A stretch of 64,000 nucleotides of DNA, taken from NCBI GenBank assembly GCA_043807255.1, contig JAZDGD010000007.1, forward strand, positions 17,069 through 81,068, written 5' to 3'. Origin of the DNA: Patescibacteria group bacterium. Its GTDB lineage: Bacteria; Patescibacteriota; Minisyncoccia; RBG-13-40-8-A. Shown one piece after another: positions 238 to 50,373 of this stretch (the stretch's first letter is position 1; each line of letters opens with the position of its first letter). The notes under the pieces were generated by a model. The model made no database searches, was not told the DNA's origin, and saw nothing but the letters and a program-made list of their open reading frames with translations. Both the position numbers and the translations under genes were made by a program.

Positions 238-1821
238 ATGCGACCAATAATTCTAACGATTTTAGACGGCTGGGGAATCGGCGAACCAGAACAAACCAAC
301 CCAATTTATCGGGCAAAAATTTCTAATCTTAAAAAAATTGAACAATTATATCCTTTTTGTTCCTTGCAAGCGTCTGGAGGAGCAATTGGTTTGCCATGGA
401 AAGAAGCAGGGAATTCAGAAGTTGGCCACCTAACCATTGGTAGCGGAAGAACAATTTATCAATATTTACCTAGAATTTCTATGGATATTGAAAATGAAAC
501 ATTTTTCACTAACCCAGCATTTTTAAAAACAATCGATCATGTCAAAAAATATAATTCTACCCTACATTTAATAGGATTAATTTCCAGCGGGAATGTGCAT
601 TCTTACCTGGAACATGTTTATGCCCTACTAGAACTAGCGAGAAGGAATAATATTGATAATTTACGACTTCATCTTTTTACTGATGGCAAAGATGCTCCAT
701 TAAAAGAAGGAATCAAAATTATTTCTATTCTTGAACAAAAATTAAAAAATCCAAACTGGAAAATTGCTTCCATTGTCGGCAGAAATTATGCTATGGACAG
801 AAACCATAATTGGGACAGGACCGAAACTGCTTACAATTTAATTGTTAATGGCGCTGGAGAAAAAACCTTTAATCCACTCGAAAGAATAAGAGAATATTAT
901 GACCAAGACATTACAGATACCTACATTAAACCGATCGTAATCATAGATGATAATCAAAATCCGATTGGTATTGTAAAAAACAATGATGCGATTATTTCTT
1001 GGGACTTTAGAGAAGATAGTGCCCGACAATTAACTGAAGCATTTGTTAAAAAAGATTTTAATAAATTCGAAAGAAAATTAATTGAAAATTTATTTTTTTG
1101 CACAATGACTGAATACGAAAAAGATTTGCCAATTGCAATTGCCTATCCGCCAATGAAAATTATTAATCATTTAACGGAGATCCTAAATCAATACAATAAA
1201 AAAATACTAAAAGTTGCTGAAACGGAAAAATATGCCCATGTTACATATTTTTTCAATGGCAATCAAGAAAATTTATTTCCCAATGAAACAAGAAAATTAA
1301 TTGCTTCTAATATTGTTACGCATTACGACGAAACACCAGAAATGCAATCAGAAAAAATTACCGAAACCATTATTGAGGGGCTTAAAGAAAATTATGATTT
1401 AATTGTTGCAAATTATTCCAATGCCGATATGATTGGCCATACAGGAAATTTAAAGGCTGGGATTAAGGCAGTGGAAGCAATTGATAAGGCGTTAAAACCA
1501 TTAATCAAATTGGCAGAAAAAGGAGAATGCGTTTTAATAATCACCGCTGACCACGGAAATATTGAACAAATGGTAAATCTTCATACTGGCGAACCGAAAA
1601 CTGAACACACATTAAATCCGGTGCCATTTTATTTGGTGGGCAAAGAATTTAAAAAAGTGCAGGCGCCACGCCCGACTTCGCAAGACGAAGTCGTTGCGGG
1701 CGGGGGCTGGGGGATGCCCCAGGGCATGCTTTCTGATATTGCGCCAACAATTCTCGAATTAATGCAAATCCCTCAACCATCAGAAATGACGGGAAAAAGT
1801 TTATTGAGTGTTTTAAAATAA
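238..1821 (+). CDS. gpmI: 2,3-bisphosphoglycerate-independent phosphoglycerate mutase. Carries an in-frame GC-rich palindromic insertion near the C-terminus (about 1660-1735)
   Basis: ILDGWG and NSEVGH motifs are present and the protein is collinear with iPGM over 527 aa. The C-terminal segment QAPRPTSQDEVVAGGGWGMPQG is encoded by a GC-rich palindromic stretch absent from E. coli GpmI. Confidence 0.9.
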   Translation: MRPIILTILDGWGIGEPEQTNPIYRAKISNLKKIEQLYPFCSLQASGGAIGLPWKEAGNSEVGHLTIGSGRTIYQYLPRISMDIENETFFTNPAFLKTIDHVKKYNSTLHLIGLISSGNVHSYLEHVYALLELARRNNIDNLRLHLFTDGKDAPLKEGIKIISILEQKLKNPNWKIASIVGRNYAMDRNHNWDRTETAYNLIVNGAGEKTFNPLERIREYYDQDITDTYIKPIVIIDDNQNPIGIVKNNDAIISWDFREDSARQLTEAFVKKDFNKFERKLIENLFFCTMTEYEKDLPIAIAYPPMKIINHLTEILNQYNKKILKVAETEKYAHVTYFFNGNQENLFPNETRKLIASNIVTHYDETPEMQSEKITETIIEGLKENYDLIVANYSNADMIGHTGNLKAGIKAVEAIDKALKPLIKLAEKGECVLIITADHGNIEQMVNLHTGEPKTEHTLNPVPFYLVGKEFKKVQAPRPTSQDEVVAGGGWGMPQGMLSDIAPTILELMQIPQPSEMTGKSLLSVLK

Positions 1822-1900: not shown

Positions 1901-2158
1901 TTATTTATCTCGATATTTTTTTCTTTTATCGAGATCTTTTTTAATAGCCTCGTTCACTTCCTCTTCTGACTTAAAATATCCTTCCGCGATTAATCCCTGT
2001 TTTGCCTCTTCAAATGCTTCCCGGGCCATCATGCCATGGTGACCAACACTTTCATCTGCCGTTTTTTTCCGATCCAATAAACTTTCAAATCTCATCCAAA
2101 ATTCCGGAGTTTCTCTGTCTTTTGATTCGATTCTTGATTCTTTGTTTTCTTTTCCCAT
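1901..2158 (-). CDS. hypothetical small charged protein (85 aa)
   Basis: ORF only. It is convergent with gpmI and shares the terminator above. Confidence 0.4.
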   Translation of the reverse strand: MGKENKESRIESKDRETPEFWMRFESLLDRKKTADESVGHHGMMAREAFEEAKQGLIAEGYFKSEEEVNEAIKKDLDKRKKYRDK

Positions 2159-3171: not shown

Positions 3172-4124
3172 AAAATTTCTGCTTCGCGCTCAATGAGCTC
3201 AAAGACTTTTTCATTAATAATTACACCTTCAGTATATTCTTTTAAAGCTGCCAAATCAATAGTTTTTTTAACTTTTTCCGCGTCTGGATAGCGCATTAAT
3301 TCTTGATTCATTTTTTCTTCAATCTCTTCAGTTGTAGGAATTATTTCTTCTTTGTCGGCGATTGCTTTAATGCATAATCCGATTTTTGCCCTTTTTTCTG
3401 CTTGCACCCTCCAACTGCTTTTTAACTCATCTAACGTTGATTTAATTTGCATTAAATAAGTTTCAAACTCTAATCCGAATTGAGTAATACTTAATTTAAA
3501 TTCATTAATCATATTTTCTAATTCCGTATCAACTAATTCTTTTGGTACTTCGATTTTAGAATCATTTGCAACTTGTTCAATTAATTCAATCCTTACCCTT
3601 TGCTTATTCATTAATTCCTTTTCTTGTTTTAAACCATCAATAACGCTTTTTTTAAATTCTTCTAAAGATTTAAACTTGCCCATAGATATTGCAAATTCAT
3701 CGTTCAATTCTGGAACTTGTCTTTCTTGAACAAGAATCATCTTTGCTTTAAAATCCAAGCCCTTGCCAGCAACCCTTTTGTCTGTCCAATCATCAGGAAC
3801 TTTTAAGGAAAATTCTTTTTCGTCTCCGGCTTTCATCCCTTCTAATTCTTTTTCAAATCCCGGTAAAAATTGTCCCTCACCTAAAATCAAAGGATGGTTT
3901 TTACTTTCACCGTTTTCAACCTTAACTCCACCGCACCTCACTTCGAAATCAATTTCAATGCGATTTCCTTTTTCTGCCGGCTTATTTATGGTTACGGTTT
4001 TTGCCCGAGAATTTTGAATATACTTTAAAGCACTTTCAATTTCTTTTTCTTCAACTTTCGAATCTTTTTTAGTTGCTTTAAGTTTTCTATAATTTGCCAA
4101 TTCGATTTTTATTTCATTAGTCAT
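3168..4124 (-). CDS. tig: trigger factor lacking the N-terminal ribosome-binding domain (FKBP-type PPIase plus C-terminal domain only)
   Basis: Collinear with E. coli Tig from about residue 115 onward (IDFEVR, [13 protein letters not shown], [16 protein letters not shown]). The start overlaps the nusA stop (ATGA), so there is no room for an N-terminal domain. Confidence 0.75.
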
Positions 4125-5800
4125 TTTATTTCTATTTCCTGAATTAATTTTTTAGTTGCCGGAAAAGTTAATTTTTCCATCGCTTCTTCTTTGGTCGCCC
4201 ATTCATATTTATCATGTTCAATAATTTCCTGTTTTAAAGAAATTATTTGCTCCATGTCGGCTTTAACCAAAAACGTATCCGCAATAACATAATTAATTCC
4301 ATCCGCTTGCCATTCTTCTTTCTTCCCTAGTTTTTTAATTACTTTAAATTTTTTAATTTGAGTTTCTTCTGCAATGCCTCTCTTTATCGTTTTTAATGGC
4401 GTTTCTCCCGGCTCAACGGTTTCTTTTAAAAATTCCCAACCATTCCATCTTAAAATTCTGTGAAGAATCAAAAAATACGGTTTATCATCTTTAACGTCGT
4501 ATATAATAGCTCTATACTTTTTTATTCCATCCCCGCCCCCGCCAACATCTGATGAAGTTGTGGCGGGTGGCGGGCCCGCCTGAATGCCCTCTGGGCTTTC
4601 GGCGAGCTTGTCGGCTTCTATCATTTTTTCACTCTTAACATCTATTTTCCAGCCCGTTAGTTTTGCGGCCAATCTTACGTTCTGTCCACGTTGTCCAATT
4701 GCTAAAGAAATTTGATCTTCGGGGACAATTACTGTTGCGCTTCTGTCTTTTTCTTCAGTTTTCACGCTAATAATTTTAGCAGGCGACAATGCATTGGCGA
4801 TATATTTCTCCATATTTTCATTCCACTCAATGATGTCAATTTTCTCTCCACCCAATTCAGCAATCACTGTTTGTACCCTGCTTCCTTTTTGTCCAACACA
4901 AGAACCAACTGGATCAACCCCTTGCTCTTCTGTAAAAACTGCAATCTTTGTTCTTGAGCCAGGCTCTCGAGCGATGGATTTTATTTGCACCGTTCCCGTT
5001 GAAATTTCTGGAACCTCAATAGAAAATAATCTGCTCACTAATTTTGGATAAGCGCGAGACAAAACAATATCAGCACCTTTTGAAGATTTTTCAACTTTCA
5101 AAATATAAACTCTCAAACGTTGACCGATAAAAAATCTTTCCCCGGGGATTTGCTCTTCGGCGTATAAAATTCCTGATGCCTTACCGATGTCCATAAAAAT
5201 ATTTCTGCCTTCAATCCTTTGTACTATCGCGCTCACGACTTCACCTTCTTTGTCTTTATACTCCGCAAACACAACCTCTCTTTCGGCTTCTCTTAATCTT
5301 TGAATAATAACTTGTTTTGCGGTTTGGGCAGCGATTCTTCCGAAATCGGTATGAGCCTCGAGTTTAGTTTGGATTTCATCTCCTGGCTTTGACCCTTTTT
5401 TAATTTTTTGTGCGTCATCAACCATCACATGTTTGAAGGGATTGAAACGAACTTTCTTGTTGCCTTCTGCATCAATTTCTTCGTCGTCCTCAAACTCTTC
5501 CCCGCCCCCACCAACATCTGATGAAGTTGTGGCGGGTGGCGGGCCCGCCTGAATGCCCTCTGGGCTTTCGGCGGGTTCTTCCTTTAACATACTTTCATCC
5601 ACAACCAAAAATACCTGGAAAACTTTTATTTCTCCAGTATTTAAATCGAACTTGACCTTAATATTCTGACCTTTCTTGCCATAGTCCTTCTTGTATGCAG
5701 CGGCAATCGCCATCTCAAGGGTTTCAATAATTTGTTCTTGAGAAATGCCTTTTTCTTCGGCAATTTGACTCATTGCTGATATAAATTGTTTTTGATCCAT
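4121..5800 (-). CDS. nusA: transcription factor NusA (NTD-S1-KH1-KH2) fused to a C-terminal NUDIX (MutT-like) domain. Contains two in-frame copies of a 76-bp GC-rich repeat
   Basis: Recognised parts are the NusA NTD (ISQIAEEKGIS, FGRIAAQTAKQVIIQRLREAERE), the S1 and two KH domains (IGQRGQNVRLAAKLTGWKIDV). The C-terminal 130 aa carry a Nudix box (WEFLKETVEPGETPLKTIKRGIAEETQI) that aligns position by position with the MutT box [30 protein letters not shown]. The peptide AESPEGIQAGPPPATTSSDVGGGG occurs twice. Confidence 0.85.
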   Translation of the reverse strand: MDQKQFISAMSQIAEEKGISQEQIIETLEMAIAAAYKKDYGKKGQNIKVKFDLNTGEIKVFQVFLVVDESMLKEEPAESPEGIQAGPPPATTSSDVGGGGEEFEDDEEIDAEGNKKVRFNPFKHVMVDDAQKIKKGSKPGDEIQTKLEAHTDFGRIAAQTAKQVIIQRLREAEREVVFAEYKDKEGEVVSAIVQRIEGRNIFMDIGKASGILYAEEQIPGERFFIGQRLRVYILKVEKSSKGADIVLSRAYPKLVSRLFSIEVPEISTGTVQIKSIAREPGSRTKIAVFTEEQGVDPVGSCVGQKGSRVQTVIAELGGEKIDIIEWNENMEKYIANALSPAKIISVKTEEKDRSATVIVPEDQISLAIGQRGQNVRLAAKLTGWKIDVKSEKMIEADKLAESPEGIQAGPPPATTSSDVGGGGDGIKKYRAIIYDVKDDKPYFLILHRILRWNGWEFLKETVEPGETPLKTIKRGIAEETQIKKFKVIKKLGKKEEWQADGINYVIADTFLVKADMEQIISLKQEIIEHDKYEWATKEEAMEKLTFPATKKLIQEIEIK

Positions 5801-14118: not shown

Positions 14119-14298
14119 ATTTTTTTATTAATTTAATAAAATCTGGTGCTTGCACCGCGAAGCTCTGAGGTTTTCCGAAGAGCGAAGTGGTGGACTTAGG
14201 CAGAATCCCCGCCTGCAACGCCTTGCGTAGCAATGGCGGGCAGGGAACTCGCCGTCTCAGCAACCTGCCTACCGGCAGGCAGGCTGCCGTCTTGTTAT

Positions 14299-18101: not shown

Positions 18102-19094
18102 ATGCTACTAAAAAGCAGGCGGAATTTTTATTTATCCAAAATTGAAATGCTTACGAACAAATTAACCCCATATTTACAAAAATTAACCAAAACTTGCCCA
18201 GCAATCAAGCGCCAATTTGTTTACTCAAAACAAGAAAATTTATCTAAAAATAAAGATAAAAAATCAACATTTATTGACCCATTAATGGAGGAGAAATATA
18301 CTGTTGTGCGTGGGTTGATTCACAAATATGATAATCGTGCCCTGATCTTATTAACCCTAAATTGTGCTGCCTATTGTAGATTTTGTACTAGACGCAGAAA
18401 GGTTTCTGATATAAAAAATGGCCTATTATCAGACGAGGACATAAACAATATTGTCGCTTACATTAAAAAACATTCTGAGATTAAAGAAATTATCCTTTCC
18501 GGCGGAGATCCGTTAACCGTGCCCGTTCTATTACAAAAATTATTATTAAAACTTTCTAAACTTTCGCAAATCAAAATTATTAGAATTGGTACTCGTTTGC
18601 CTGTCGCTGACCCTCAAAAAATAAATTCAAAACTAATTAATATTTTAAAAGTCATAAAAAATAAAACTGTATACATTTTAATTCATTTTGAGCATCCCAA
18701 AGAAATTACCAAACAAACAATTATTGCTGTAAACAAATTAAAACAAGTTTCAACAATGCTTTTATCTCAATCGGTATTTTTAAAAAATGTTAATGATTCA
18801 TTTGATACGCTCTATGAACTTTTTTCTCAGTTAATTGAAATTGAGGTTAAGCCATACTATTTATATCATTGTGATCCAGTTAAGGGCGCTGAGCATTTTA
18901 TTGTTGATTTCAAAAAAGAAATAAAAATTGTTACCGAATTACGAAAAGAATTAAGTGGATTAGCATTTCCAACATATATTATTGATGCACCCAACGGTGC
19001 AGGCAAAATTCCTGTACCCCTGGAATTCTGGAAATTCGATTCAGACAAATACAAAGATTTTAACGGCAAAATCTTACGAGGTTTAACCTCGTAA
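18102..19094 (+). CDS. KamA-family radical SAM protein (lysine 2,3-aminomutase / EpmB-like)
   Basis: CAAYCRFC (CxxxCxxC) and SGGDPL. The size matches EpmB. Confidence 0.75.
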   Translation: MLLKSRRNFYLSKIEMLTNKLTPYLQKLTKTCPAIKRQFVYSKQENLSKNKDKKSTFIDPLMEEKYTVVRGLIHKYDNRALILLTLNCAAYCRFCTRRRKVSDIKNGLLSDEDINNIVAYIKKHSEIKEIILSGGDPLTVPVLLQKLLLKLSKLSQIKIIRIGTRLPVADPQKINSKLINILKVIKNKTVYILIHFEHPKEITKQTIIAVNKLKQVSTMLLSQSVFLKNVNDSFDTLYELFSQLIEIEVKPYYLYHCDPVKGAEHFIVDFKKEIKIVTELRKELSGLAFPTYIIDAPNGAGKIPVPLEFWKFDSDKYKDFNGKILRGLTS

Positions 19095-19121
19095 GATTTT
19101 GCATTTAAGTTCGAATTCATA

Positions 19122-30407: not shown

Positions 30408-30486
30408 GCGGTCGCAAGATTGCCCTGCTCGCGGATGCGAGTCCGAGATTTAAACTTCGCCTTTTAAAGGCGAGGTTTTGTTTTTA
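30408..30486 (+). ncRNA. candidate small RNA of about 75 nt: promoter, internal hairpins, then an intrinsic terminator (30455-30485)
   Basis: The terminator CTTCGCCTTTTAAAGGCGAGGTTTTGTTTTT is plus-oriented. No ORF lies between the promoter and the terminator. Confidence 0.4.
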
Positions 30487-31114
30487 TAAAAGTAATTCCC
30501 TTTTTTATTCTTTGAGCATTGATATTCAAATCTGCTCTTTCTTTAAGATAATGCGTAATATATCCCGCACTAAATAAAATTACTTTTTTCTTTCTTCTTC
30601 TTAAAAAATTTAACAAATAGGCAAAATCTGCGTCGCTGGAAAATAAACAAAAAGTGTCATATTTGTCTAAGAATCTTATTGCATCAATACAAATTTCGGC
30701 ATCAAAATTACATTTCGGGATGTAAACGTATCTACCTTGATCGTCTTGATCTATGTTTCTTGTTGTGCTTTTTTCTTCGGAGGAATCTAAATAATGTCTA
30801 ATTTTTTGTATCGGTTTGGTAATTGTTTTGTCAAAATATTGTCTTGCTTTACTGATAATTTTGATAGATTTTTGCTTTGTTGTGTCCAGGCCAAAATAAA
30901 ATCTTTTATGCTCTGAAAATAAATTTATGAAACCTGCTAATTTTTCTATATCAACCACCAACTTTTTGTCTTGTGATAAAACATTATCATCGCCATCTCT
31001 TTCGTCTCTTTCGTACCAATAGTTTACATTCCCAAAATCAACAAAACTATAAATTTTACCAAATTTATTTTTATCTATTTCTAAGTTTTCTAATTTAAAC
31101 TCACACAAATCCAT
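30464..31114 (-). CDS. NYN/LabA-like (PIN-like) domain protein
   Basis: FSSDADFAYLL. A paralogous architecture occurs at 36881..37396. Confidence 0.55.
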   Translation of the reverse strand: MDLCEFKLENLEIDKNKFGKIYSFVDFGNVNYWYERDERDGDDNVLSQDKKLVVDIEKLAGFINLFSEHKRFYFGLDTTKQKSIKIISKARQYFDKTITKPIQKIRHYLDSSEEKSTTRNIDQDDQGRYVYIPKCNFDAEICIDAIRFLDKYDTFCLFSSDADFAYLLNFLRRRKKKVILFSAGYITHYLKERADLNINAQRIKKGITFIKTKPRL

Positions 31115-31178
31115 TATATCTTAACCATACCTTAAAAATGCGTTTATGACAAATAAAAAAATCGCATTGAACACGACT

Positions 31179-31252
31179 TGGTGCCCCCACAAGGAATCGG
31201 ACCTTGGTCAGCTGCTTAAAAGGCAGTTGCTTTACCATTAAGCTATGGGGGC
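31179..31252 (-). tRNA. tRNA-Lys (anticodon UUU) with encoded 3' CCA
   Basis: GCCCCCA...TGGGGGCACCA. Anticodon loop CTTTTAA. Confidence 0.8.
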
Positions 31253-31270
31253 GTATTTATATTATTTAGA

Positions 31271-31921
31271 TTAATTAATATGATTGCATATTTCTTCAAT
31301 CCATGCAAGAATTCTATGCCTTAAATTCTCATTATTGACCTGAATTCTAAGCGTTCCATTGTATAACTTGTTCTTTCTGTGACCAGTGCCTTCTTTTTTG
31401 AAGAAAGTGCTTCCAAATCTATTTGTCGAAATATGAACTATTTTTGACCAATATCTTTTTGCTTTTTTTTCATTAAGACCAGTGTGAAGGTGTAAATATG
31501 GCTTAATCTTGTTTTCTGGCACCATACAAACATCTCGATACCATTTCATCATAAATTTGATCAATAATGGATCAGAATTTGTGAAAGACGAACTTTTAAC
31601 CTTAGATCCTTCGGCCCAATACAATGCCGCACCGATCATTTTAATCTCGTAATTGTTTAAGTGCTTAATTTCTTTCTTCGCATTTTTTTTAATAACTTCA
31701 ATCTCTTTTTGTCTTTTTAGTTGGTTGGCTTTGGCACCACGGAATTGGGTATCATACAAAGAACCCAGACGAGTGATCTGTTTTTTGGTCAATTTAACGT
31801 TTTTACACCATGCGCTAATAGTGCTTTTGCTCACAGGAACCCGTTTCACTATTTCCGAATAGCTGAATCCCTTTTTTCTTAACTCCATAGCACGCTCTTT
31901 CAATTGCCATTTTCTAGTCAT
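31271..31921 (-). CDS. HTH-domain protein with a LAGLIDADG-like motif (putative homing-endonuclease-like), embedded between two tRNA-Lys genes
   Basis: N-terminal HTH (GFSYSEIVKRVPVSKSTIS) and IGAALYWAEGSK. Confidence 0.35.
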   Translation of the reverse strand: MTRKWQLKERAMELRKKGFSYSEIVKRVPVSKSTISAWCKNVKLTKKQITRLGSLYDTQFRGAKANQLKRQKEIEVIKKNAKKEIKHLNNYEIKMIGAALYWAEGSKVKSSSFTNSDPLLIKFMMKWYRDVCMVPENKIKPYLHLHTGLNEKKAKRYWSKIVHISTNRFGSTFFKKEGTGHRKNKLYNGTLRIQVNNENLRHRILAWIEEICNHIN

Positions 31922-31991
31922 AATCGTATATGTTAATTAATACTACATGATTACATATTAAGTATACGATCATAAAATTGTATTGTCAATT

Positions 31992-32062
31992 TGCCCCCAC
32001 AAGGAATCGGACCTTGGTCAGCTGCTTAAGAGGCAGTTGCTTTACCATTAAGCTATGGAGGC
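31992..32062 (-). tRNA. tRNA-Lys (anticodon CUU), no encoded CCA
   Basis: Identical to the UUU copy except at position 4 (C to T) and position 34 (T to C). Confidence 0.8.
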
Positions 32063-32069
32063 AGAAGAA

Positions 32070-32141
32070 TGCCCTCGGCAGGAATCGAACCCGCAATTGC
32101 GCGTCCGAAGCGCGCCGTGTTATCCATTATACCACGAGGGC
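32070..32141 (-). tRNA. tRNA-Arg (anticodon UCG), no encoded CCA
   Basis: Acceptor GCCCTCG/CGAGGGC, anticodon stem GCGCG/CGCGC with loop CTTCGGA, T-loop TTCGATT. Confidence 0.75.
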
Positions 32142-32199
32142 AACAATAAAATCATACCCTATAATTAATTTATGGTCAATTTAATCCGCCCCAATATTA

Positions 32200-32531: not shown

Positions 32532-33704
32532 CTAAAATATTCCTGACAAATAATAAAGTCCCATTGCCAATAAAACAATCGCTTCAACTAAACTCAACCA
32601 TTTCATTGCTTTGCCCGACACAATTTTTATATTCATCGTGAAAACGGCAATTAGGAAAACGATAATCTCGTCTAACATGTAAAACAAAACATACACTATA
32701 AGATGAAAAATATAACTCGATAAGGAAACTCCCGCATGGGTCATGACTCCCGCAAATAGAACCGGTATCACTGCCGAACAGGGGAATTCTACGATCGTAA
32801 TTACGGCAGCGAAAATTATTACACCCACGATCAATCCCCATATTCCACCTGATTTTTTAAACGCTTCTTGAATTTTTACAGATTGCTTGTTAACGATTTT
32901 ATTTCCTTGACTATCGCAAACTAAATTTTGTTTTTTAGATTTTAAAAATTGTCTTAAAAAATATATTGAACCCAAAATCCCTAAGATTCCTACAAACAAA
33001 TTCATTACTTTTAAAACGGGACTTAAATAATAAAATAATTGATACCACAAAAAAATCAAGGCACCATAAATTATGGCTGTAACTAAAATGTATAATCCAC
33101 CAAAAAGAATAATTTTTGATCGTGATTTCAGGATTAAGACTAATCCCAAAATCATTATTAATGCACCCAAAGAACAAACACTAAATCCATCAAAAAACCC
33201 CAAAATTATTGCTTGCATTAATAACGAATATTTGCTCAAATCTACTTCTCCTAGAATTGGAACATTTATCTTGTTTTTGTCTTTTTCTTCTGGCTTTTCA
33301 GCGTTTAATTGTTTTTCAATTGAATTAATTATTTCTTGACCAGTACTTGATTCGTCGTTAAAGCCCAAAATAAAATCTTCGCCAACAAATGTCATTGGTA
33401 CAGCTCCCAAATATTTATCAGCATTATGTTTTTTGACGGAGTCAATTAATAATTGTCTGTGCGTAATATCGGTGACTAAGTAACGATTAATTTGCACATC
33501 TGGATAATCTGGTGCTATTCTATCCAAAAATGCGCTTTCTGCCTTACAATGAATACACGTTTCAGAATAGAAAAAATTAATCTCTAATTTTATTTCTGCG
33601 GACTTGTCCGCCGAAGCTTTAGCGAAGGCGGGCGCAAAAAAAGGAGCTACGATTGTAAGCCCAATTAAAGCGAACGCAATAAAACCGGATAATCTTTTTG
33701 CCAT
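32532..33704 (-). CDS. secreted thioredoxin-fold domain (CIHC) fused to a CcdA/DsbD-like polytopic membrane domain
   Basis: Signal peptide, CxxC, and two membrane-embedded Cys (FSVCSLG, EFPCSAV). Confidence 0.55.
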   Translation of the reverse strand: MAKRLSGFIAFALIGLTIVAPFFAPAFAKASADKSAEIKLEINFFYSETCIHCKAESAFLDRIAPDYPDVQINRYLVTDITHRQLLIDSVKKHNADKYLGAVPMTFVGEDFILGFNDESSTGQEIINSIEKQLNAEKPEEKDKNKINVPILGEVDLSKYSLLMQAIILGFFDGFSVCSLGALIMILGLVLILKSRSKIILFGGLYILVTAIIYGALIFLWYQLFYYLSPVLKVMNLFVGILGILGSIYFLRQFLKSKKQNLVCDSQGNKIVNKQSVKIQEAFKKSGGIWGLIVGVIIFAAVITIVEFPCSAVIPVLFAGVMTHAGVSLSSYIFHLIVYVLFYMLDEIIVFLIAVFTMNIKIVSGKAMKWLSLVEAIVLLAMGLYYLSGIF

Positions 33705-34281: not shown

Positions 34282-35841
34282 ATGTTAACAGAAAAACAGC
34301 AAAAAATATTCGATTATATCAAGAAATATATAAAGAAAAATAACTACTCGCCTTCTCTCCAAGAGATCGCGAAACGTTTCAAGTTATCATCGATATCTGG
34401 CGTGCACCAACACGTCGAAGCGCTCAAATCAAAAGGCTATTTAAATAAATTTGAAAATCATCCAAGGACAATCCAAATATCAAATAAATTCAAAAGATTA
34501 AATTTTGTAAAAATACCAATTCTCGGAACCATCACCGCCGGACAACCAATAGAAGTTATTGAAACGCTAGGCGAAACAATTAATGTTTCGAAAAACGAAA
34601 TAAGTCCCTATTTTGATTATTATGCCCTTAAAGTCAAAGGCGACAGTATGATCGATGAGGGAATTTTTGACGGAGATACTGTTGTAATTAAAAAACAATC
34701 TACGGCAGAAAATGGCCAAACAGTGGTCGCCATAATAAATCAGAACGAGGCCACCTTAAAGAAAATCTACAAATTAAAAAATATTTTTAAATTGCAACCG
34801 GCAAATCAGAATATGTTACCAATTTATACAAACGAAATTGAGATTAGAGGTGTTCTCGTTAAAACTATTCCTGGTTTTCCAAGCACAAAAAACCAAACAA
34901 CGATCAGAACCCTGGATTTGTTCGCAGGGATTGGTGGCATACGTCTCGGATTCGAAAAGAATGGATTTGAAACAGTATTCTCTAATGATTTTGACGAAAA
35001 TTGCAAGACAACTTACGATTTAAATTTTAAAACCTCAAAACTTGTTACCGAAGACGTAACTAAAATTGGAATCGATGATTTGCCAGAATTTGATTTCTTG
35101 CTAGCAGGATTTCCGTGTCAAGCATTTTCAATTGCTGGATATCGACAAGGATTCAAGGACGAGAAAGGAAGGGGGAATCTATTTTTCGATATTGCGAGAA
35201 TTATTGACGCCCGGAAACCGAAAGGTTTCTTATTGGAAAATGTTAAGAATCTAATTAGCCACGACAATGGAAAAACGTTTAAAATAATAACGGAAACATT
35301 GAAAAATCTTGGCTATCACATTAAACCCGAAGTTTTAAATAGCATGAATTACGGTAACGTTCCACAAAATCGAGAGAGAATCTATATCGTGGGATTTAAA
35401 GACAAAAATAACATAGAGAAATTTAATTTTCCCGAACCCATAAAACTAGAAACAAAAATCAACGATTTTCTGGAAGAAAACGTTGATAATAAATACTATT
35501 ATAACGACAAGCCTCTCTATAAAAAACTCAAAGATTTTGTAAAAGAAGAAAATAAGATTTATCAATGGCGTAGACAATATGTGCGAGAAAATAAAAAAGG
35601 AGTTTGCCCAACGCTAACAGCAAATATGGGAACCGGCGGACACAATGTGCCAATTATAAAAGACAAAAAAGGAATCAGAAAACTGACTCCTCTTGAATGT
35701 TTTAGGTTGCAGGGTTTTTCGAAAGATTTTATATTGCCCAAATTGGCGGATTCTGTTTTATATAAACAGGCCGGAAATTCCGTAACCGTTTCGGTAGTTG
35801 AAAGAATTGCAAAAAAAATAAAAAGCGTAATGGATAATTAA
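34282..35841 (+). CDS. LexA-like repressor (wHTH plus S24 peptidase with Ala-Gly site, Ser and Lys) fused to a DNA (cytosine-5) methyltransferase
   Basis: N-terminal 200 aa are collinear with LexA (ITAGQP, GDSM, TLKK). The C-terminal part carries FAGIGG (motif I), FPCQAFS (IV), ENVKNL (VI), QNRERIY (VIII) and GNSV (X). Confidence 0.85.
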   Translation: MLTEKQQKIFDYIKKYIKKNNYSPSLQEIAKRFKLSSISGVHQHVEALKSKGYLNKFENHPRTIQISNKFKRLNFVKIPILGTITAGQPIEVIETLGETINVSKNEISPYFDYYALKVKGDSMIDEGIFDGDTVVIKKQSTAENGQTVVAIINQNEATLKKIYKLKNIFKLQPANQNMLPIYTNEIEIRGVLVKTIPGFPSTKNQTTIRTLDLFAGIGGIRLGFEKNGFETVFSNDFDENCKTTYDLNFKTSKLVTEDVTKIGIDDLPEFDFLLAGFPCQAFSIAGYRQGFKDEKGRGNLFFDIARIIDARKPKGFLLENVKNLISHDNGKTFKIITETLKNLGYHIKPEVLNSMNYGNVPQNRERIYIVGFKDKNNIEKFNFPEPIKLETKINDFLEENVDNKYYYNDKPLYKKLKDFVKEENKIYQWRRQYVRENKKGVCPTLTANMGTGGHNVPIIKDKKGIRKLTPLECFRLQGFSKDFILPKLADSVLYKQAGNSVTVSVVERIAKKIKSVMDN

Positions 35842-35844
35842 TAA

Positions 35845-36408
35845 TTACCAAACTTTTACATTACACGCAATTGGTTTTAATTTGCATCTTTCAATGATTT
35901 CTTTAGTTATACTAAATCTTGGTCTTCGTTTTTGTTTTTGTTGTTGCCTTAATGTTTGTTTCTTGTTTACTTTGGCATTAAGTATAAATCTAGATGGAAT
36001 TTTATAGACGTTAAAAGTCCCGTCTAGTTTTTTCTCATTATAAAAATCTAAAAAATACAAATCGTCCCATTGAGATTTTGGGCCAAATGTTGTTAAGTCG
36101 TGCTTTATACTAGATGCCTTTATTTGTTCAGCTCTTTTGGTTTTTAAATTAAATGTATCAAAAGATGTTGATGCTTCTCCCCTTAGGGATATAAATCTTT
36201 TCGAACCCGAAAACAAACAAAACGCCACCTCAGACAGACCCTCTGGCAAATTAGGTTCTCGTGATTTATATTCGCGCATACCTAATTTTAATTTTTTCCA
36301 TATATCAAAAAGTGCTTTCCATTTTTTACTGTCTTCTTTGTCAAAGCTCATGAGTTCCACTAAGCATTCCTTACCAAAGATAACGGTTTTGTATTGATCA
36401 ATATGCAT
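35845..36408 (-). CDS. hypothetical protein; candidate cognate type II restriction endonuclease, inferred only from its convergent position next to the methyltransferase
   Basis: Context only. No recognisable motif. Confidence 0.3.
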   Translation of the reverse strand: MHIDQYKTVIFGKECLVELMSFDKEDSKKWKALFDIWKKLKLGMREYKSREPNLPEGLSEVAFCLFSGSKRFISLRGEASTSFDTFNLKTKRAEQIKASSIKHDLTTFGPKSQWDDLYFLDFYNEKKLDGTFNVYKIPSRFILNAKVNKKQTLRQQQKQKRRPRFSITKEIIERCKLKPIACNVKVW

Positions 36409-39611: not shown

Positions 39612-40775
39612 ATGGCACAACAAAATAACGATCCAATTAATTCCTTGCCCGAATACGAAGTAAGGACGATGCAAGACGACTTAAATAAGATAGAAGGAAA
39701 AACGGTAGAACCAAAATTGGTGAACCTAAAAGTACCCGAAATACAGGTTCCAAAACCAATTATCAAAAAAGAAGAAAAGATACCTGAACCGCCAAAAGAA
39801 TTACCAATAATTGAAGAAGCCAAAGAAACACTGAAAACACCCCTATCGGAAGAAATCGACAATATTCTTAATGCATCGAAACTCAAATCCGAGACCAAGC
39901 CAGAAATTAAAATACCAGAGACCAAAAAATCCTCATTGCCAGATATCGAGGATTTTATTGTACCCGTACCCCCGCCTGCGCCCACGCCAACAGCCACCCC
40001 CATTCCTCCACCAATAAAGCCAATCACAAAAAAAACAATTAAACCAATCACACAAGAAAGCAATGAAATAGAAACAACGATTAAGGCACACAAGACAAAA
40101 AAAATATTAATCATTTTAGGGATAATTGTTATCATTGTCATCGTCATCAATCTGATAGGATACTTGATAATTTCAAAAATAAAAAAACAAGAACCAAATC
40201 CTTTGCCAATTGATAATCAGCCAGAAATTTCTATGTCATTAATTAGGGTTGATGAAACAAAAATTTTTAAAATAGAAAACAACTCTTCTTTGATTGATAT
40301 GTTAATTAATGAAGAAAATTCTGGCCAACCAGAAAAAACTCTAAAAAGAATTGTGCCTACAAAAATTAGTGGCAACGCTCTTTCATTAAATGAATTGACC
40401 CAAGAATTACGGATTTATATTCCCCCATACACGCTTGCGGAACTAAAAAATAATTATACACTTGTTACATATAAACAAGGCGAACAGCAAAGGATTGGAT
40501 TGATCGTAGAAATAAACAATTTAGAAGGATTTATTGAGAAATCGAAATCGTGGGAAAAAACAATGCCCTGGAATTTCCAAGGCATATTCTTAAACCATCA
40601 ACCAAACAATTTAACTACAAATGGCTTTTCTGATAATAAATATAACGAAACAAACATCCGCATTGTCGATCTCTCTGTCCCAGAATTGTCCCTTGACTAC
40701 GCGATCAAAAATAATCTATTTTTAATGTCTACGAGCAGAGAATCAATATACAACATTATCGATAGATTAAAATAA
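39612..40775 (+). CDS. hypothetical single-pass membrane protein with a Pro-rich N-terminal region
   Basis: ORF plus TM. Confidence 0.45.
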   Translation: MAQQNNDPINSLPEYEVRTMQDDLNKIEGKTVEPKLVNLKVPEIQVPKPIIKKEEKIPEPPKELPIIEEAKETLKTPLSEEIDNILNASKLKSETKPEIKIPETKKSSLPDIEDFIVPVPPPAPTPTATPIPPPIKPITKKTIKPITQESNEIETTIKAHKTKKILIILGIIVIIVIVINLIGYLIISKIKKQEPNPLPIDNQPEISMSLIRVDETKIFKIENNSSLIDMLINEENSGQPEKTLKRIVPTKISGNALSLNELTQELRIYIPPYTLAELKNNYTLVTYKQGEQQRIGLIVEINNLEGFIEKSKSWEKTMPWNFQGIFLNHQPNNLTTNGFSDNKYNETNIRIVDLSVPELSLDYAIKNNLFLMSTSRESIYNIIDRLK

Positions 40776-42507: not shown

Positions 42508-42544
42508 TTATCCACAGTATTAACTATTGACAAACATATCTTAT

Positions 42545-42922
42545 ATGATATATACTGATTCTAATGAATATAAAGTAAAATTTTTCGTTGATCCCAAAAC
42601 AGGAAAAGATCCAGTTATGAAATACATTAATGATTTAGACGAAAAACAGAAAGCAAAAGTTTCTAGATTTATCGAATTTTTAAGACAACACGAAGGCGTA
42701 TTAGATGAGCCATACTCAAAACACATTAAAGGCAAAATTCGCGAATTAAGGATTGATTTTGGCAAAAATAGACACAGAATCTTCTATTTTACGTTCATCA
42801 ACAAGAACATCATATTGCTCCACGCATTTTTAAAGCATACGCAAAAAACTCCTGAAACTGAGATAAAAATCGCTGAAAATAATTATAATATTGTAATTAA
42901 TAATCCAAAATTTTATGAATAA
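42545..42922 (+). CDS. higB: HigB/Gp49-like (RelE/ParE superfamily) toxin. Start uncertain: alternatives are 42617 or the TTG at 42527, which is more likely a -35 hexamer
   Basis: IRELRIDFGKNRHRIFYF ... LLHAFLK, similar to Gp49/HigB-2. Confidence 0.6.
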   Translation: MIYTDSNEYKVKFFVDPKTGKDPVMKYINDLDEKQKAKVSRFIEFLRQHEGVLDEPYSKHIKGKIRELRIDFGKNRHRIFYFTFINKNIILLHAFLKHTQKTPETEIKIAENNYNIVINNPKFYE

Positions 42923-43205
42923 AAAAATAAAAGCAAGAGATTTTCAAAAATACCTTGCTCAACAATTAAAAAATCCCGAATTCAAGAGACACTACGATGA
43001 TTACGGCAAACAATTAGAAATTGCTTACCAGATTTTGAAGTTGCGAAAACAGAGAAATATGTCCCAGTTACAATTAGCCAGAAAGATTAAAACCAAGCAA
43101 AGCAATATCGCCCGAATCGAAGCTGGCAAACAAAATCTTAGCATTCAAACCCTCGACAGCATCGCCCGCGCATTAAACAGCAATTTTACAGTCAACTTTT
43201 CGTAA
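42915..43205 (+). CDS. higA: HTH XRE-family antitoxin (HigA-like)
   Basis: HTH (LRKQRNMSQLQLARKIKTKQSNIARIE). Overlaps the toxin stop. Confidence 0.65.
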   Translation: MNKKIKARDFQKYLAQQLKNPEFKRHYDDYGKQLEIAYQILKLRKQRNMSQLQLARKIKTKQSNIARIEAGKQNLSIQTLDSIARALNSNFTVNFS

Positions 43206-43317
43206 AATCCACATCGCCGAAGCGTTGCAATATAGACCGAAGATGGAGGTATGATAAAATTTTCAATTTTCAATTTCTAATTTACAATGAATTTTTAATG
43301 ATTAAATTTTCAAACCC

Positions 43318-43455
43318 ATGACCAAGAAAATAAAAGCAAGAGATTTCCAAAAATATCTTGCCGAACAATTAAAAAATCCTGAATTTAAGAAACATTACGA
43401 TAAATTCGGCAAAAAATTAAGGCAGAATTATAAAAAAAGCGAAATACATGATTAA
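43318..43455 (+). pseudogene. truncated second copy of the HigA-like antitoxin (N-terminal 45 codons only)
   Basis: MTKKIKARDFQKYLAEQLKNPEFKKHYD, against MNKKIKARDFQKYLAQQLKNPEFKRHYD in the intact copy. Confidence 0.55.
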
Positions 43456-45828: not shown

Positions 45829-45863
45829 ATAGATGTACGGAGAACTGTTCTCCGTACATCTAT
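45829..45863. promoter_or_regulatory. perfect 16-bp inverted repeat with a 3-nt spacer (ATAGATGTACGGAGAA ctg TTCTCCGTACATCTAT) upstream of the small Cys-rich gene; putative operator
   Basis: Read directly from the sequence. Confidence 0.55.
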
Positions 45864-47581: not shown

Positions 47582-49507
47582 ATGAGCGATATTTTAACTG
47601 ATTTGAATCCAAAACAGCAAGAAGCGGTAACCACGATTGATGGGCCGGTTTTGATATTGGCTGGGCCGGGTTCTGGCAAGACAAAAGTGCTTACTCACCG
47701 CTTAGCATACATGGTAAAATCAGGAATTTTGCCCCAAAACATCTTGGCGGTCACATTTACAAATAAGGCGGCAGGCGAGATGAAATCGCGAACAGCAAAG
47801 CTGCTCGACCATACCAGCTATCTACCTTTTATGGGAACCTTCCACGCATTTTGCTTAAAAACCTTGCGCAAAGAAATCCCCAAATTGGGCTACAGATCAA
47901 GTTTTGTAATTTATGACGAAGACGACCAATTGAGCTTGGTAAAAGACGTTATTAAGCGATTAGAAATTAACCAAGACCAGTTCTCTGCTAAAAGGGCCCT
48001 ACACACAATTTCTTCCCTAAAAAACGAAATTATTGATTACAAAGAATACGAAGATAATGCACAAGAATTTTTTGAGAAAATAATTGCTAAAATTTATAGA
48101 GGGTATCAAGAAGAACTAAAAAAGAACAATGCCCTGGACTTTGATGACTTAATTATGTTTATGGTTAAAATTTTTGAAGAATGGCCAGATGTCTTAGAAA
48201 GATATCAAGAACAATACAAATATATTATGGTTGATGAATATCAGGACACTGACCCATCGCAATACAAATTAATTAAATTATTATCGTCTAAATACAAAAA
48301 TATTTGCGTAGTGGGAGACGACGCACAATCGATTTATTCATTTAGAAATGCGGATTTCAGAAATATTTTGAATTTTGAAAAAGATTATCCGCAAGCAAAA
48401 GTTGTGACCCTAGACCAAAATTATCGATCAACACAAAATATTTTAGACGCTGCTTCAAAATTAATTTCCAAAAATGTTTATCAAAAACCGAAAAATCTTT
48501 GGACAGAGAATCCTTCTGGCCCCTTGATTGCAGTTGTGGGAACCTGGAACGAAAAAAGCGAAGCGGAATTCATTGTTAAAAAGATTGCCGAACTCTCACA
48601 ACAGGGATACAAATTAAGCGATTTTGCAATTTTCTACCGAACCAATGCCCAATCACGTGCAGTTGAAGAGGCGTTTATTAAAAACAACATCCCCTACAAA
48701 TTGGTGGGAGCGATTAGATTTTATCAAAGAAGGGAAATTAAAGATTTGATTGGATATTTAAAATATATTTCCAACGGCGATGAATTGAGTTTAAAAAGAA
48801 TTATTAACACTCCCACTCGAGGGGTTGGCAAAATTACAATTGATAAAATCTTACAAAATGGCATTGAAAAAATCGCTGAAGAAAAAAATGAAGTAGGGTT
48901 ATTCTATAAAATTATTCAAAAAGCAAAAGAACTCGCTCTAAAATCGCCATTATCAAAGCTTTTAAAATTTATTCTCAAAGAAACTGAATATCAGAATTAT
49001 CTTAAAAAAACTTATGGCGATAACGAACTGCAGGCCGGACTTTCTGAAGATGAGGCGCGATGGCAAAACGTTGAAGAGCTCGTCAGTGTTGCTGCCGAAT
49101 ATGATAAACTCCCTTCACCACAAGGATTAAATGATTTTTTGGAAAAAACTGCATTACTTTCTGATGCTGACGAAATTCAAAACAATCAAAATGTTGTACA
49201 TCTAATGACACTTCATACCGCCAAGGGGCTGGAATTTCCAGCAATTTTCATTATTGGTTGCGAAGAGGGAATTTTACCTCATTCGCGAAGCTTACTAAAT
49301 CCTTTAGACATTGAAGAAGAACGCAGACTATTTTATGTCGGCATAACCAGAAGTAAGGTTCATTTACATTTAATCGTTTCTCAACGCAGAACAAGCTGGG
49401 GATCGCAAGAAGCGAATCCGCCATCGAGATTTTTGTCAGAAATACCTGAACATCTAATTCAATACGAAGAATTCGAACCAGACATTAAAGGACTAATTGA
49501 TTTTTAA
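47582..49507 (+). CDS. pcrA: ATP-dependent DNA helicase PcrA/UvrD
   Basis: GPGSGKT, TFTNKAA, DEYQDT and the VTLDQNYRS motifs. Confidence 0.9.
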   Translation: MSDILTDLNPKQQEAVTTIDGPVLILAGPGSGKTKVLTHRLAYMVKSGILPQNILAVTFTNKAAGEMKSRTAKLLDHTSYLPFMGTFHAFCLKTLRKEIPKLGYRSSFVIYDEDDQLSLVKDVIKRLEINQDQFSAKRALHTISSLKNEIIDYKEYEDNAQEFFEKIIAKIYRGYQEELKKNNALDFDDLIMFMVKIFEEWPDVLERYQEQYKYIMVDEYQDTDPSQYKLIKLLSSKYKNICVVGDDAQSIYSFRNADFRNILNFEKDYPQAKVVTLDQNYRSTQNILDAASKLISKNVYQKPKNLWTENPSGPLIAVVGTWNEKSEAEFIVKKIAELSQQGYKLSDFAIFYRTNAQSRAVEEAFIKNNIPYKLVGAIRFYQRREIKDLIGYLKYISNGDELSLKRIINTPTRGVGKITIDKILQNGIEKIAEEKNEVGLFYKIIQKAKELALKSPLSKLLKFILKETEYQNYLKKTYGDNELQAGLSEDEARWQNVEELVSVAAEYDKLPSPQGLNDFLEKTALLSDADEIQNNQNVVHLMTLHTAKGLEFPAIFIIGCEEGILPHSRSLLNPLDIEEERRLFYVGITRSKVHLHLIVSQRRTSWGSQEANPPSRFLSEIPEHLIQYEEFEPDIKGLIDF

Positions 49508-50373
49508 TGATTAAAATTCAAGATATTTTAAACAGATACAATATCAAACCCAATAAATTTATGGGGCAGAATTTTTTGATTGACGAGAATGTTTTGAATA
49601 AAATTATTGAAACTGCAAACATTAAACCAAACGATATTATTTTGGAGGTTGGGCCCGGATTAGGAAATTTAACATTGGAACTAGCAAAAAGGGCAGAGCG
49701 AGTGATTGCGATTGAAAAAGATAGAGAATTGTGTGAAATATTAGAAAAAATTCTAAAAGATAACAACATAAAAAATGTCCAAATTATCAATGACGATATT
49801 TTAAAAATGGGAGACATCGCACGTCCCCATGTAGGACGTGCGATGTCCTACATGGTTGTGGCAAATATTCCGTACTATCTTACTTCGCCATTGATTAGAA
49901 TGTTTTTGGAAACAGAAAATAAACCAAGCGAAATAATTTTAATGATTCAAAAAGAGGTGGCTCAGCGCATCTGCGCTTCGCCACCCACTAAATCGCCAAA
50001 GGCGATCGGGCCCGAACTACGAAGTAGTTCTAGGGCAAAAATGTCCTTACTCGCCGTATCTGTGCAATTTTATGCTAAACCAGAGATAATTTCTTTTGTT
50101 TCTAAAAATAGTTTTTACCCTGTGCCAAAAGTGGATTCTTCAATCATCAAAATAGTGCCCTACAACACAAAGAATGTTGGACGTCCGACGTCCAACATTG
50201 ATACGGAAAAGTTTTTTAAATTGGTGAAAATGGGGTTTTCTGCGAAAAGAAAGATGCTAAAAAACAACATCCCTGAAATTAATTTTGAAAAATTAAATTT
50301 AAATCCAGGTATTCGTGCAGAGAGTTTAACGATCAATGATTGGATTAAAATTTATGAACAATTTAATCCCTAA
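49507..50373 (+). CDS. rsmA: 16S rRNA (adenine1518/1519-N6)-dimethyltransferase with three in-frame palindromic-element segments
   Basis: GQNFL, EVGPGLGNLT and NIPYY. The extra segments are KMGDIARPHVGRAMSYM, TKSPKAIGPELRSSS and NVGRPTSNID. Confidence 0.88.
   Translation: MIKIQDILNRYNIKPNKFMGQNFLIDENVLNKIIETANIKPNDIILEVGPGLGNLTLELAKRAERVIAIEKDRELCEILEKILKDNNIKNVQIINDDILKMGDIARPHVGRAMSYMVVANIPYYLTSPLIRMFLETENKPSEIILMIQKEVAQRICASPPTKSPKAIGPELRSSSRAKMSLLAVSVQFYAKPEIISFVSKNSFYPVPKVDSSIIKIVPYNTKNVGRPTSNIDTEKFFKLVKMGFSAKRKMLKNNIPEINFEKLNLNPGIRAESLTINDWIKIYEQFNP

Follow-up and report, generated by a model that had tools for sequence, protein, structure and literature searches.

Palindromic repeats that settle inside bacterial coding sequences are known from Rickettsia. 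In the summary given by PMC10969869, the Rickettsia palindromic elements (RPEs; Ogata et al. 2000) are described as palindromes lying in-frame in unrelated housekeeping genes, with a conserved and benign peptide frame and at fold-compatible positions; they also occur in non-coding and RNA-gene contexts, are about 100–150 bp long, old and diverged, and have no known transposase. The GC clusters of yeast mitochondria are short GC-rich palindromes, mostly intergenic and some in-frame in var1, that merge, nest and shuffle, act as recombination hot spots and carry terminal AG/TAG repeats read as target-site duplications; the related byp elements are bypassed (PMC8811140). [quoted passage not shown] Here we describe a GC-rich segment inside gpmI, the gene for the glycolytic enzyme cofactor-independent phosphoglycerate mutase (iPGM), on a 64-kb stretch of a contig from an ultra-small bacterium, with 35% GC overall (the window, by which we mean this whole stretch). 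We put at roughly 0.7 the probability that the segment is a copy of a family of short hairpin mini-elements dispersed in Portnoybacteria-like Patescibacteria, a selfish palindrome tolerated as a disordered protein loop.

The element resembles RPEs as a palindromic repeat of an AT-rich, reduced bacterial genome that lies in-frame in unrelated genes, in a single frame and at permissive positions. Unlike in the RPEs, its unit is 39–42 nucleotides (nt), far more GC-rich than the genome and 100% identical across genomes, its host belongs to the Patescibacteria, and it represents a different sequence family, a distinction made without alignment to RPE consensus sequences. With the yeast GC clusters it shares a short GC-rich palindrome in an AT-rich genome and both intergenic and in-frame positions, and their nesting and shuffling invite comparison with the nested gpmI loop and the nusA–NUDIX fusion described below; it differs from them in its bacterial contig, its lack of terminal AG/TAG repeats and its conserved frame. 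The element belongs to neither family: its size, its sequence and its host differ, and it lacks terminal repeats. Like MITEs it is a small non-autonomous repeat with inverted ends that can sit in open reading frames (ORFs), but it is shorter, has no duplication and has no known parent.

Repetitive extragenic palindromes (REPs) lie outside genes, have a conserved 5′ tetranucleotide of the GTAG type and are found together with a gene for a REP-associated tyrosine transposase (RAYT, a Y1 transposase); the target of IS200/IS605 elements is a fixed tetra- or pentanucleotide, immediately 3′ of which they insert. Our element is comparable to REPs, bacterial interspersed mosaic elements (BIMEs) and IS200/IS605-derived palindromes as an imperfect palindrome of 20–40 nt without target-site duplication, likely recognised as a single-strand hairpin; unlike REPs, it has intragenic copies, and no GTAG adjoins the palindrome. 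No RAYT gene was found within the 64 kb (50 of the 55 main window ORFs scanned), and an IS200/IS605-type fixed target is ruled out because the left flanks differ (CAGGCG, TATGAT, TATAAG, GCAAAG, GGTAGA and GGTTC). A full-text search, over incomplete literature coverage, returned no earlier description of such elements in Patescibacteria. Provisionally, we take the hairpin element to be of a type already described in Rickettsia and yeast mitochondria and new for this bacterial group.

The gpmI product has Pfam iPGM_N and Metalloenzyme domains and is 100% identical to NCBI MFH1129397.1, from a metagenome-assembled genome of a Patescibacteria group bacterium. The features of the gene, in window coordinates, are as follows.

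238..1821, plus strand: gpmI, the host gene, an ORF of 527 amino acids
1659..1730, plus strand: composite GC-rich island of 72 nt, made up of apparent remnants of an older element, type-1 itself and the native PQGM codons
1660..1665, plus strand: CAGGCG, probably left over from the 3′ arm of an older 'PAANLRMQAG'-type hairpin element, judging from a codon alignment
1666..1704, plus strand: type-1 hairpin element, 39-nt unit CCACGCCCGACTTCGCAAGACGAAGTCGTTGCGGGCGGG, read as PRPTSQDEVVAGG, delimited by comparison of filled and empty alaS sites
1669..1702, plus strand: outer stem of CGCCCG (1669–1674) and CGGGCG (1697–1702) around the inner hairpin, with a 3′ bulge CGTTG
1673..1693, plus strand: inner perfect hairpin with an 8-bp stem and a 5-nt loop, read directly from the sequence and found by a hairpin scan
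1705..1713, plus strand: GGC TGG GGG (G-W-G), putative flank of the older element, outside type-1, matching the loop 'QAG-WG-x-PQG' of L003, P0013 and P0027
1714..1727, plus strand: inverted repeat ATGCCC (1714–1719) and GGGCAT (1722–1727) with the 2-nt spacer CA

The reading is carried by recurrence of the same unit in unrelated genes. A degenerate pattern spanning the window copy, the copy in the ortholog L001 and an intergenic relative was run against the JGI metagenomes and returned 12 loci. Window positions 1665–1706 matched 42/42 in alaS, the gene for alanyl-tRNA synthetase (AlaRS), on other Patescibacteria contigs (L089 and L094/L095/L099), where the copies have the orientation and frame of the gpmI copy and read PRPTSQDEVVAGGG; a pairwise comparison scored 42/42 against L089 and 41/41 against L094. 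The type-1 unit accordingly measures 39–42 nt (1666–1704 or 1666–1706), or 13–14 codons, and reads PRPTSQDEVVAGG(G). The alaS genes of L089 and L094 share 72% nucleotide identity around an element that is identical at 42/42 positions, and among 556 sliding 42-nt blocks no other is identical between them. Such a 42-nt identity in an unrelated gene of other genomes therefore indicates a dispersed element. A decayed variant with two stem mismatches lies at the N-terminus of a XerC-like recombinase (L092), and gpmI, alaS (in two genomes) and the XerC-like gene all read (P)RPTSQ..VVAGGG, that is, a palindromic repeat in one frame in unrelated genes. The identical 42 nt were recovered from independent JGI, ENA and NCBI assemblies, always with the frame kept. 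Across the family the ends are constant (5′ CCNNGCCCG..., 3′ ...GTTGCRGGCGGGG) and the hairpin centre is variable; the terminal inverted repeats are CGCCCG...CGGGCG in type-1 and CCCGCC...GGCGGG in a sister form, type-2, and an alignment of nine copies contains a compensatory change in 2 of 10 consensus pairs.

The gpmI ortholog of L001 (57% identical; also L002 and L098) carries the same 48 nt at the same position, ungapped and 40/48 identical. In the codon alignment of the two genes, the element stands at 82% identity (87% at third positions) versus 66% (49%) for the gene, and the stems differ by a compensatory change of a C-G to an A-T pair and by repair of an A·A mismatch. A sequence-only reading of this DNA, which had proposed a GC-rich palindromic mini-element translated in-frame inside gpmI, took as counter-evidence any distant ortholog with the same loop in AT-rich codons; the loop DNA of L001, despite the distance, is GC-rich. 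In a contig profile search with the gpmI alignment, all of the matches listed were distant loci of at most 58% identity.

Comparison of 120 AlaRS orthologs of L094 gave the empty state of the insertion site. Most read FYD|GVEIWN, and L094 has exactly 39 nt between D and G; in nucleotides, the site reads TAT GAC|GGC GTG when empty (L101, from the metagenome of L094) and TAT GAT|39 nt|GGA GTA when filled. The same junction holds a 36-nt relative (SACHGKSGVAGG) in L102 and, in L103, a 30-nt member of another family, 'FAKAS', in the opposite orientation (PARRSLGEGG). As a separate observation, AlaRS orthologs (P0208, P0189, P0230 and many others) carry lineage-specific inserts at two further sites, some clearly hairpin-derived (PACRQGRPAYRQGR; CLPAGR/CLPVGR from CTGCCTGCCGGCAGG-type repeats) and others Lys/Gln-rich (KIQNPNAKIQTFEY).

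Base composition sets the gpmI segment apart within its own gene. The island at 1659–1730 has about 71–74% GC versus 34% in gpmI and is one of only nine strong GC islands across the 64 kb; a 100-nt scan gave 0.61 at 1651–1750 against 0.24–0.38 over most of gpmI, and a 50-nt scan peaked at 0.74 in the island. The 42-mer at 1665–1706 has 71% GC (remainder of gpmI, 34%), and at least 31/42 GC is reached by only 35 of the ~64,000 42-nt windows (0.05%). The inner hairpin consists of the arms CGACTTCG (1673–1680) and CGAAGTCG (1686–1693) around the loop CAAGA (1681–1685), exactly as the sequence-only reading gave it. That reading is essentially right, being supported by the GC profile, the hairpin and the copies elsewhere, and its boundaries are corrected here. 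Its GC-rich segment of about 70 bp agrees with the 72-nt island, but the repeat unit is shorter; its 20 or so extra residues correspond to a real extra loop (solved iPGM structures 5vpu, 1ejj and 1o99 have 18–20 residues fewer here), of which the repeat accounts for only 13–14 codons, 'PQG' being native. Its second inverted repeat exists as ATGCCC/GGGCAT, with a 2-nt spacer and not as written. This repeat falls outside the unit because its 3′ arm and spacer are native codons retained in element-free orthologs: bases 1717–1727 are the conserved P-Q-G-M codons, and CCC GAG/CAG GGC ATG is also found in orthologs without the GC element.

The folding check that the earlier reading had called for gave a mixed answer. 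The antisense strand scored z = −3.6, but the sense strand, at z = −1.55, is unexceptional because any GC-rich stretch folds well; the significance of the hairpin therefore rests on repeat and comparative evidence. An intrinsic terminator was considered and rejected, since the GC hairpin is followed by GGCTGGGGGATG without a T-run; a terminator-like hairpin of gpmI with a T-run lies at about 1868–1895.

The position of the element in gpmI was compared across 120 Patescibacteria orthologs of 50–100% identity. The stretch from FYLVGKEFK to PQG(M/I)LSDIAPT is hypervariable among them, and the presence/absence variation that the earlier reading had proposed to check for was found in the nearest relatives. 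The closest, L003 (85%), has no type-1 element; in its place stands a hairpin of 30 nt and different sequence, CCCGCCGCAAACTTACGTATGCAGGCGGGC (PAANLRMQAG), with TGG GGA after it. L004 (84%), second in closeness, has a short loop without a GC element. A frequent AT-rich state is Q-KNADEKYSF-xx-PEG (L085, L088), L086 has the 30-nt PAAN hairpin ahead of the ancestral RYSF, and other orthologs have a third motif, (P/S)(S/A)FAKA(S/T)(E/A)(G/D). In an AlphaFold2 model of the gpmI product (mean predicted local distance difference test score (pLDDT) 81.5), residues 476–494, the insert, are the only place in the C-terminal domain with pLDDT <50. Because the loop is hypervariable, has pLDDT <50 and consists of residues absent from solved iPGMs, the site is a permissive surface loop, occupied repeatedly by several different hairpin sequences.

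The flanks suggest how the window loop was assembled. L003, P0013 and P0027 share ...ATG CAG GCG GGC TGG GGx xxx CCC CAG GGC, and L003 reads ATG CAG GCG|GGC TGG at the site equivalent to CAGGCG; the window reads GTG CAG GCG [39 nt] GGC TGG GGG ATG CCC CAG GGC, with a right flank 'GGCTGGGG' that looks like a remnant of the older, different hairpin element of this closest ortholog. In the simplest reconstruction, type-1 would have entered GCG|GGC within the 3′ arm of a pre-existing PAAN-type hairpin, whose broken 5′ arm (18 nt) would subsequently have been lost. The L001 gene has the flanks of the window (CAGGCG|...|GGC), which could reflect common descent, allele transfer of the composite or preferred nesting into that hairpin.

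Outside coding sequence, the family is represented in the window by type-2, which has both termini in common with type-1.

14208..14244, minus strand: type-2 sister element, 37 nt, CCTGCCCGCCATTGCTACGCAAGGCGTTGCAGGCGGG, intergenic, 38/38 identical to L091

The type-2 copies are associated with tRNA genes. The window copy begins about 55 nt 3′ of tRNA-Ala, within a duplicated T-loop and acceptor-end fragment of that tRNA; other copies follow tRNA-Ile (L090/96/97) or lie twice in a Thr-Tyr-Thr-Trp tRNA cluster (L093/L100/L091). In the window (14119–14298, minus strand) and in L090 (7195–7290), the adjacent tRNA has a duplicated 3′ fragment that carries an encoded CCA, and type-2 interrupts the T-loop of this fragment between TTC and GA(A/T)TC. 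In L093 (8177–8612), type-2 follows 5′ tRNA fragments of 22–23 nt at TAGA|GC of the D-stem, and one of these fragments is a Thr(GGT)/Thr(TGT) chimera. Next to the window copy is a second hairpin (14264–14283, CCTGCCT-accggc-AGGCAGG), which lies between copies of the 7-nt direct repeat AGACGGC.

Further hairpin repeats lie in-frame elsewhere in the window, in line with the wider pattern of insertions that the sequence-only reading had suspected: two in nusA, one in ORF 32532..33704 and several in ksgA.

5499..5573, minus strand: 75-nt GC-rich element of two hairpins, copy 1, in-frame in the N-terminal domain of NusA, within a variable acidic loop (AESPEGIQAGPPPATTSSDVGGGG)
4530..4604, minus strand: 75-nt element, copy 2, in place of the NusA C-terminal tail
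33606..33635, minus strand: 30-nt 'FAKAS' hairpin, read APAFAKASAD, just past the signal/transmembrane segment of ORF 32532..33704

For the motif CCGCC-N8-38-GGCGG, 6 occurrences in the window compare with 0.19 expected, and for perfect GC-containing hairpins 12 compare with 0–3 (mean about 1) in block shuffles. The two nusA copies are 99% identical, have folding z scores of about −6 and are both in frame in ORF 4121..5800 (minus strand). Copy 2 links nusA in frame to the downstream NUDIX gene in a single ORF of 559 amino acids; in L085, L087 and L088, nusA and NUDIX are separate, overlapping genes and the NusA tail is Lys-rich. Separately, the two direct copies are 969 nt apart, and recombination between them could delete most of nusA. 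Read antisense, the second hairpin of the nusA element matches the type-1 3′ half at 20/25 positions (shuffle p = 0.0025), which gives moderate support to a relationship between the two; the resemblance of its first hairpin to the gpmI PQGM region was too weak and was not used. The 'FAKAS' family also occurs in gpmI loops of other orthologs and, reversed, at the L103 alaS site. In ksgA (49507..50373, plus strand), several in-frame palindromes of other families lie at 49813–49853, about 49990–50030 and 50173–50199; the middle one combines ATCGCC-aaa-GGCGAT with GAACTAC-gaa-GTAGTTC, and the protein has about 14 residues more there than solved KsgA structures. A proline-rich GC island at 39957–40009 was rejected as an element, being ordinary coding sequence.

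Searches beyond these contigs returned little. Scans of viral contigs with type-1 and nusA-type patterns gave no match; a 15-mer scan of the same contigs gave about 120 chance matches in GC-rich phages and one real near-copy, a type-2 hairpin in an intergenic spacer of the IMG/VR contig L148 (63% GC; 4112–4150), so that the hairpin also exists outside the AT-rich genomes of Patescibacteria. No significant match to the elements came from GenBank phages or PLSDB plasmids. Among Rfam 15 covariance models only tRNAs reached the gathering score, with nothing credible on the elements at E ≤ 10. A triple-tandem element peptide used as a query gave zero matches at E ≤ 10, as did the 34-residue nusA element segment against 1.84 billion representatives at E ≤ 0.001. 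Two other identities were rejected: a CRISPR repeat, the hairpin being outside any array and scoring only 13 bits in Rfam, and a DNA-uptake sequence, its length being far too great and its occurrence too rare.

The family, then, is found in intergenic DNA, in particular inside or beside tRNA gene fragments, and, where its length is divisible by three, in-frame in hypervariable surface loops (gpmI, alaS and the XerC-like gene). On the reading that we favour, a dispersed selfish palindrome, the element would have inserted as DNA at an N|GG junction, one that apparently lay in the 3′ arm of a hairpin already occupying the loop, and would be transcribed and translated as a disordered loop of 13–14 Pro, Gly, Ser, Thr and acidic residues; the insertion would survive because this loop leaves the fold undisturbed. 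It would behave as selfish DNA whose DNA or RNA hairpin is maintained, as in the Rickettsia palindromic elements and yeast mitochondrial GC clusters, and would spread within and between genomes through a trans-acting activity and/or recombination. The measured intragenic units are all multiples of 3 (39, 36 and 30 nt in alaS, 30 nt in L086 gpmI, 75 nt twice in nusA and 30 nt at 33606–33635), unlike the 37-nt intergenic type-2, and the same reading frame is used in four gene contexts. These lengths and the single reused frame fit translation followed by selection for a benign disordered peptide, and argue against ribosomal bypass or RNA excision.

Several results weigh against this reading. The exact type-1 unit is single-copy in the window, where its kin are the 37-nt type-2 and the diverged nusA copies, and the 100% identity between genomes could equally reflect purifying selection at the nucleotide level. 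The lack of stop codons carries no weight, as the 42-mer is open in all six frames, and the presumed translation is argued from frame conservation. Pfam scans of the same 50 window ORFs detected no transposase, Y1/RAYT or reverse transcriptase. Comparison of empty and filled alaS sites revealed no target-site duplication, and no target motif was conserved beyond a following G. Moreover, the insertion point is reused in divergent orthologs (L089, L094, L102 and L103 for alaS; the window and L001 for gpmI), which homologous-recombination allele transfer or selection for a functional hairpin could also explain; more generally, such reuse could come from survivorship at permissive sites, allele transfer or hairpin replacement through shared GC-rich ends.

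A more far-reaching form of the reading, which we advance only tentatively, is that the hairpins are an active Patescibacteria family of about 40 nt, moving between genes and genomes by an undescribed mechanism that also hits tRNA genes and fuses genes. Such a mechanism would work without target-site duplication, join at N|GG, prefer the sense strand and nest into other hairpins; its hits in tRNA genes would leave pairs of an intact gene and a fragment, and it would remodel essential proteins and have fused nusA to NUDIX.

Among the alternatives, the hairpin may be a functional cis-acting nucleic-acid signal under nucleotide-level selection, its coding sites being co-options; possible roles include processing or stabilisation of mRNA or tRNA transcripts, pausing of ribosome or polymerase, and a protein-binding site. 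The perfect retention of 42 nt between diverged genomes, the compensatory changes that preserve the stem and the association of type-2 with tRNA genes are what such a signal would leave, and the type-1 and type-2 copies are all sense to local transcription (gpmI 2, alaS 3, XerC-like 1, tRNA-linked 4). We nevertheless consider it unlikely. The element is absent from the closest gpmI and alaS orthologs and is therefore dispensable, the alaS site has been filled by at least three hairpin sequences unrelated to one another, and the element is found only at positions where an insertion is tolerated by the protein; the nusA copies run antisense, Rfam offers no match, and with no T-run there is no terminator.

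Rather improbable, too, is that the segment is a loop cassette without dedicated mobility, an allele spread by transformation and homologous recombination through conserved flanks, with ectopic conversion or template switching. Divergent orthologs are indeed filled at a site that is empty in nearer relatives, the flanks are highly conserved (GPCGPxTEMFY and EIWNDVF; NPVPFY and DIAPT), a target-site duplication is absent, and the extra CAGGCG left flank is common to the window and L001. Against this account stand the identical units in unrelated genes (gpmI, alaS and the XerC-like gene) with dissimilar flanks and the copies within tRNA gene fragments, as well as the constant termini around a variable centre, which a repeat family typically shows.

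That the ribosome skips the element, as happens in T4 gene 60 and with the byps of Magnusiomyces mitochondria, or that it is removed from the mRNA, is very improbable. A GC-rich hairpin in an AT-rich genome also characterises byps (PMC8811140), and bypass of exactly 39 nt in alaS would give the canonical FYD-GVEIWN. Unlike in byp and T4 gene 60, where frame and length vary and stops are frequent, the intragenic units are open in the host frame at lengths divisible by 3, and they keep one frame in four contexts, with no matching take-off/landing codons, no in-frame stop past the take-off codon and no ribozyme or intron match. We give almost no credence to an ordinary lineage-specific loop, GC-rich by chance, or to an assembly or chimera artefact: the loop varies in all Patescibacteria orthologs and repeats can mislead assemblers, but the same 42 nt recur in other genes of independent assemblies with the frame kept, and the protein on record at NCBI matches the window ORF exactly.

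The window contains other repeats and modules. A separate palindrome family, ATGTAGGAC-N6-GTCCTACAT, has four copies (1825–1849, 2248–2272, 49829–49853 and 50174–50198), two flanking a small ORF just 3′ of gpmI (1901..2158, minus strand) and two within ksgA. Long perfect intergenic palindromes with 16–17-bp stems and 3-nt loops lie at 2386–2420, 19066–19102 and 45829–45863; two of the three have a common ...ACGAGGT/ACCTCGT... core, and they may be terminators or another repeat family. At 34282–35841 (plus strand), a single protein of 519 residues unites a LexA DNA-binding domain with an S24 peptidase domain and with a C-5 cytosine DNA methylase; its gene is convergent with a Bsp6I-like restriction endonuclease gene (35845–36408, minus strand), and the product is an unusual SOS-repressor/methylase fusion in a restriction-modification system. 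The 3′ end of a ComM/Mg-chelatase-like gene (42460–42505) recurs at 43207–43252 with 91% identity, and a 102-nt direct repeat (42915–43016 and 43318–43419, 85%) brackets a Gp49-like toxin gene (42527..42922); the segment 42460–43419 has the appearance of a small insert within the 3′ end of comM. A duplicated module at 30464–32142 consists of a 216-residue ORF followed by tRNA-Lys, plus tRNA-Arg; a NYN domain was detected only in the 30464..31114 copy, and the 71-nt tRNA-Lys repeat is 97% identical, with TTT and CTT anticodons.

The genomes of Patescibacteria are streamlined and tiny, yet phosphoglycerate mutase, AlaRS, NusA and KsgA bear in-frame selfish or hairpin repeats. If general, this would account for many of the odd insertions held to be specific to the candidate phyla radiation (CPR) and for low-complexity peptides in their proteins. 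In-frame hairpin repeats give rise to artefacts in annotation and alignment, serve as natural markers for loops that accept insertions and provide a way for genes to fuse and rearrange. That different genomes have identical copies suggests recent activity or exchange, and the mobilising machinery would therefore be discoverable by comparative genomics. If the family is indeed active, it would be a major, unrecognised source of variation in protein loops and gene architecture in minimal genomes.

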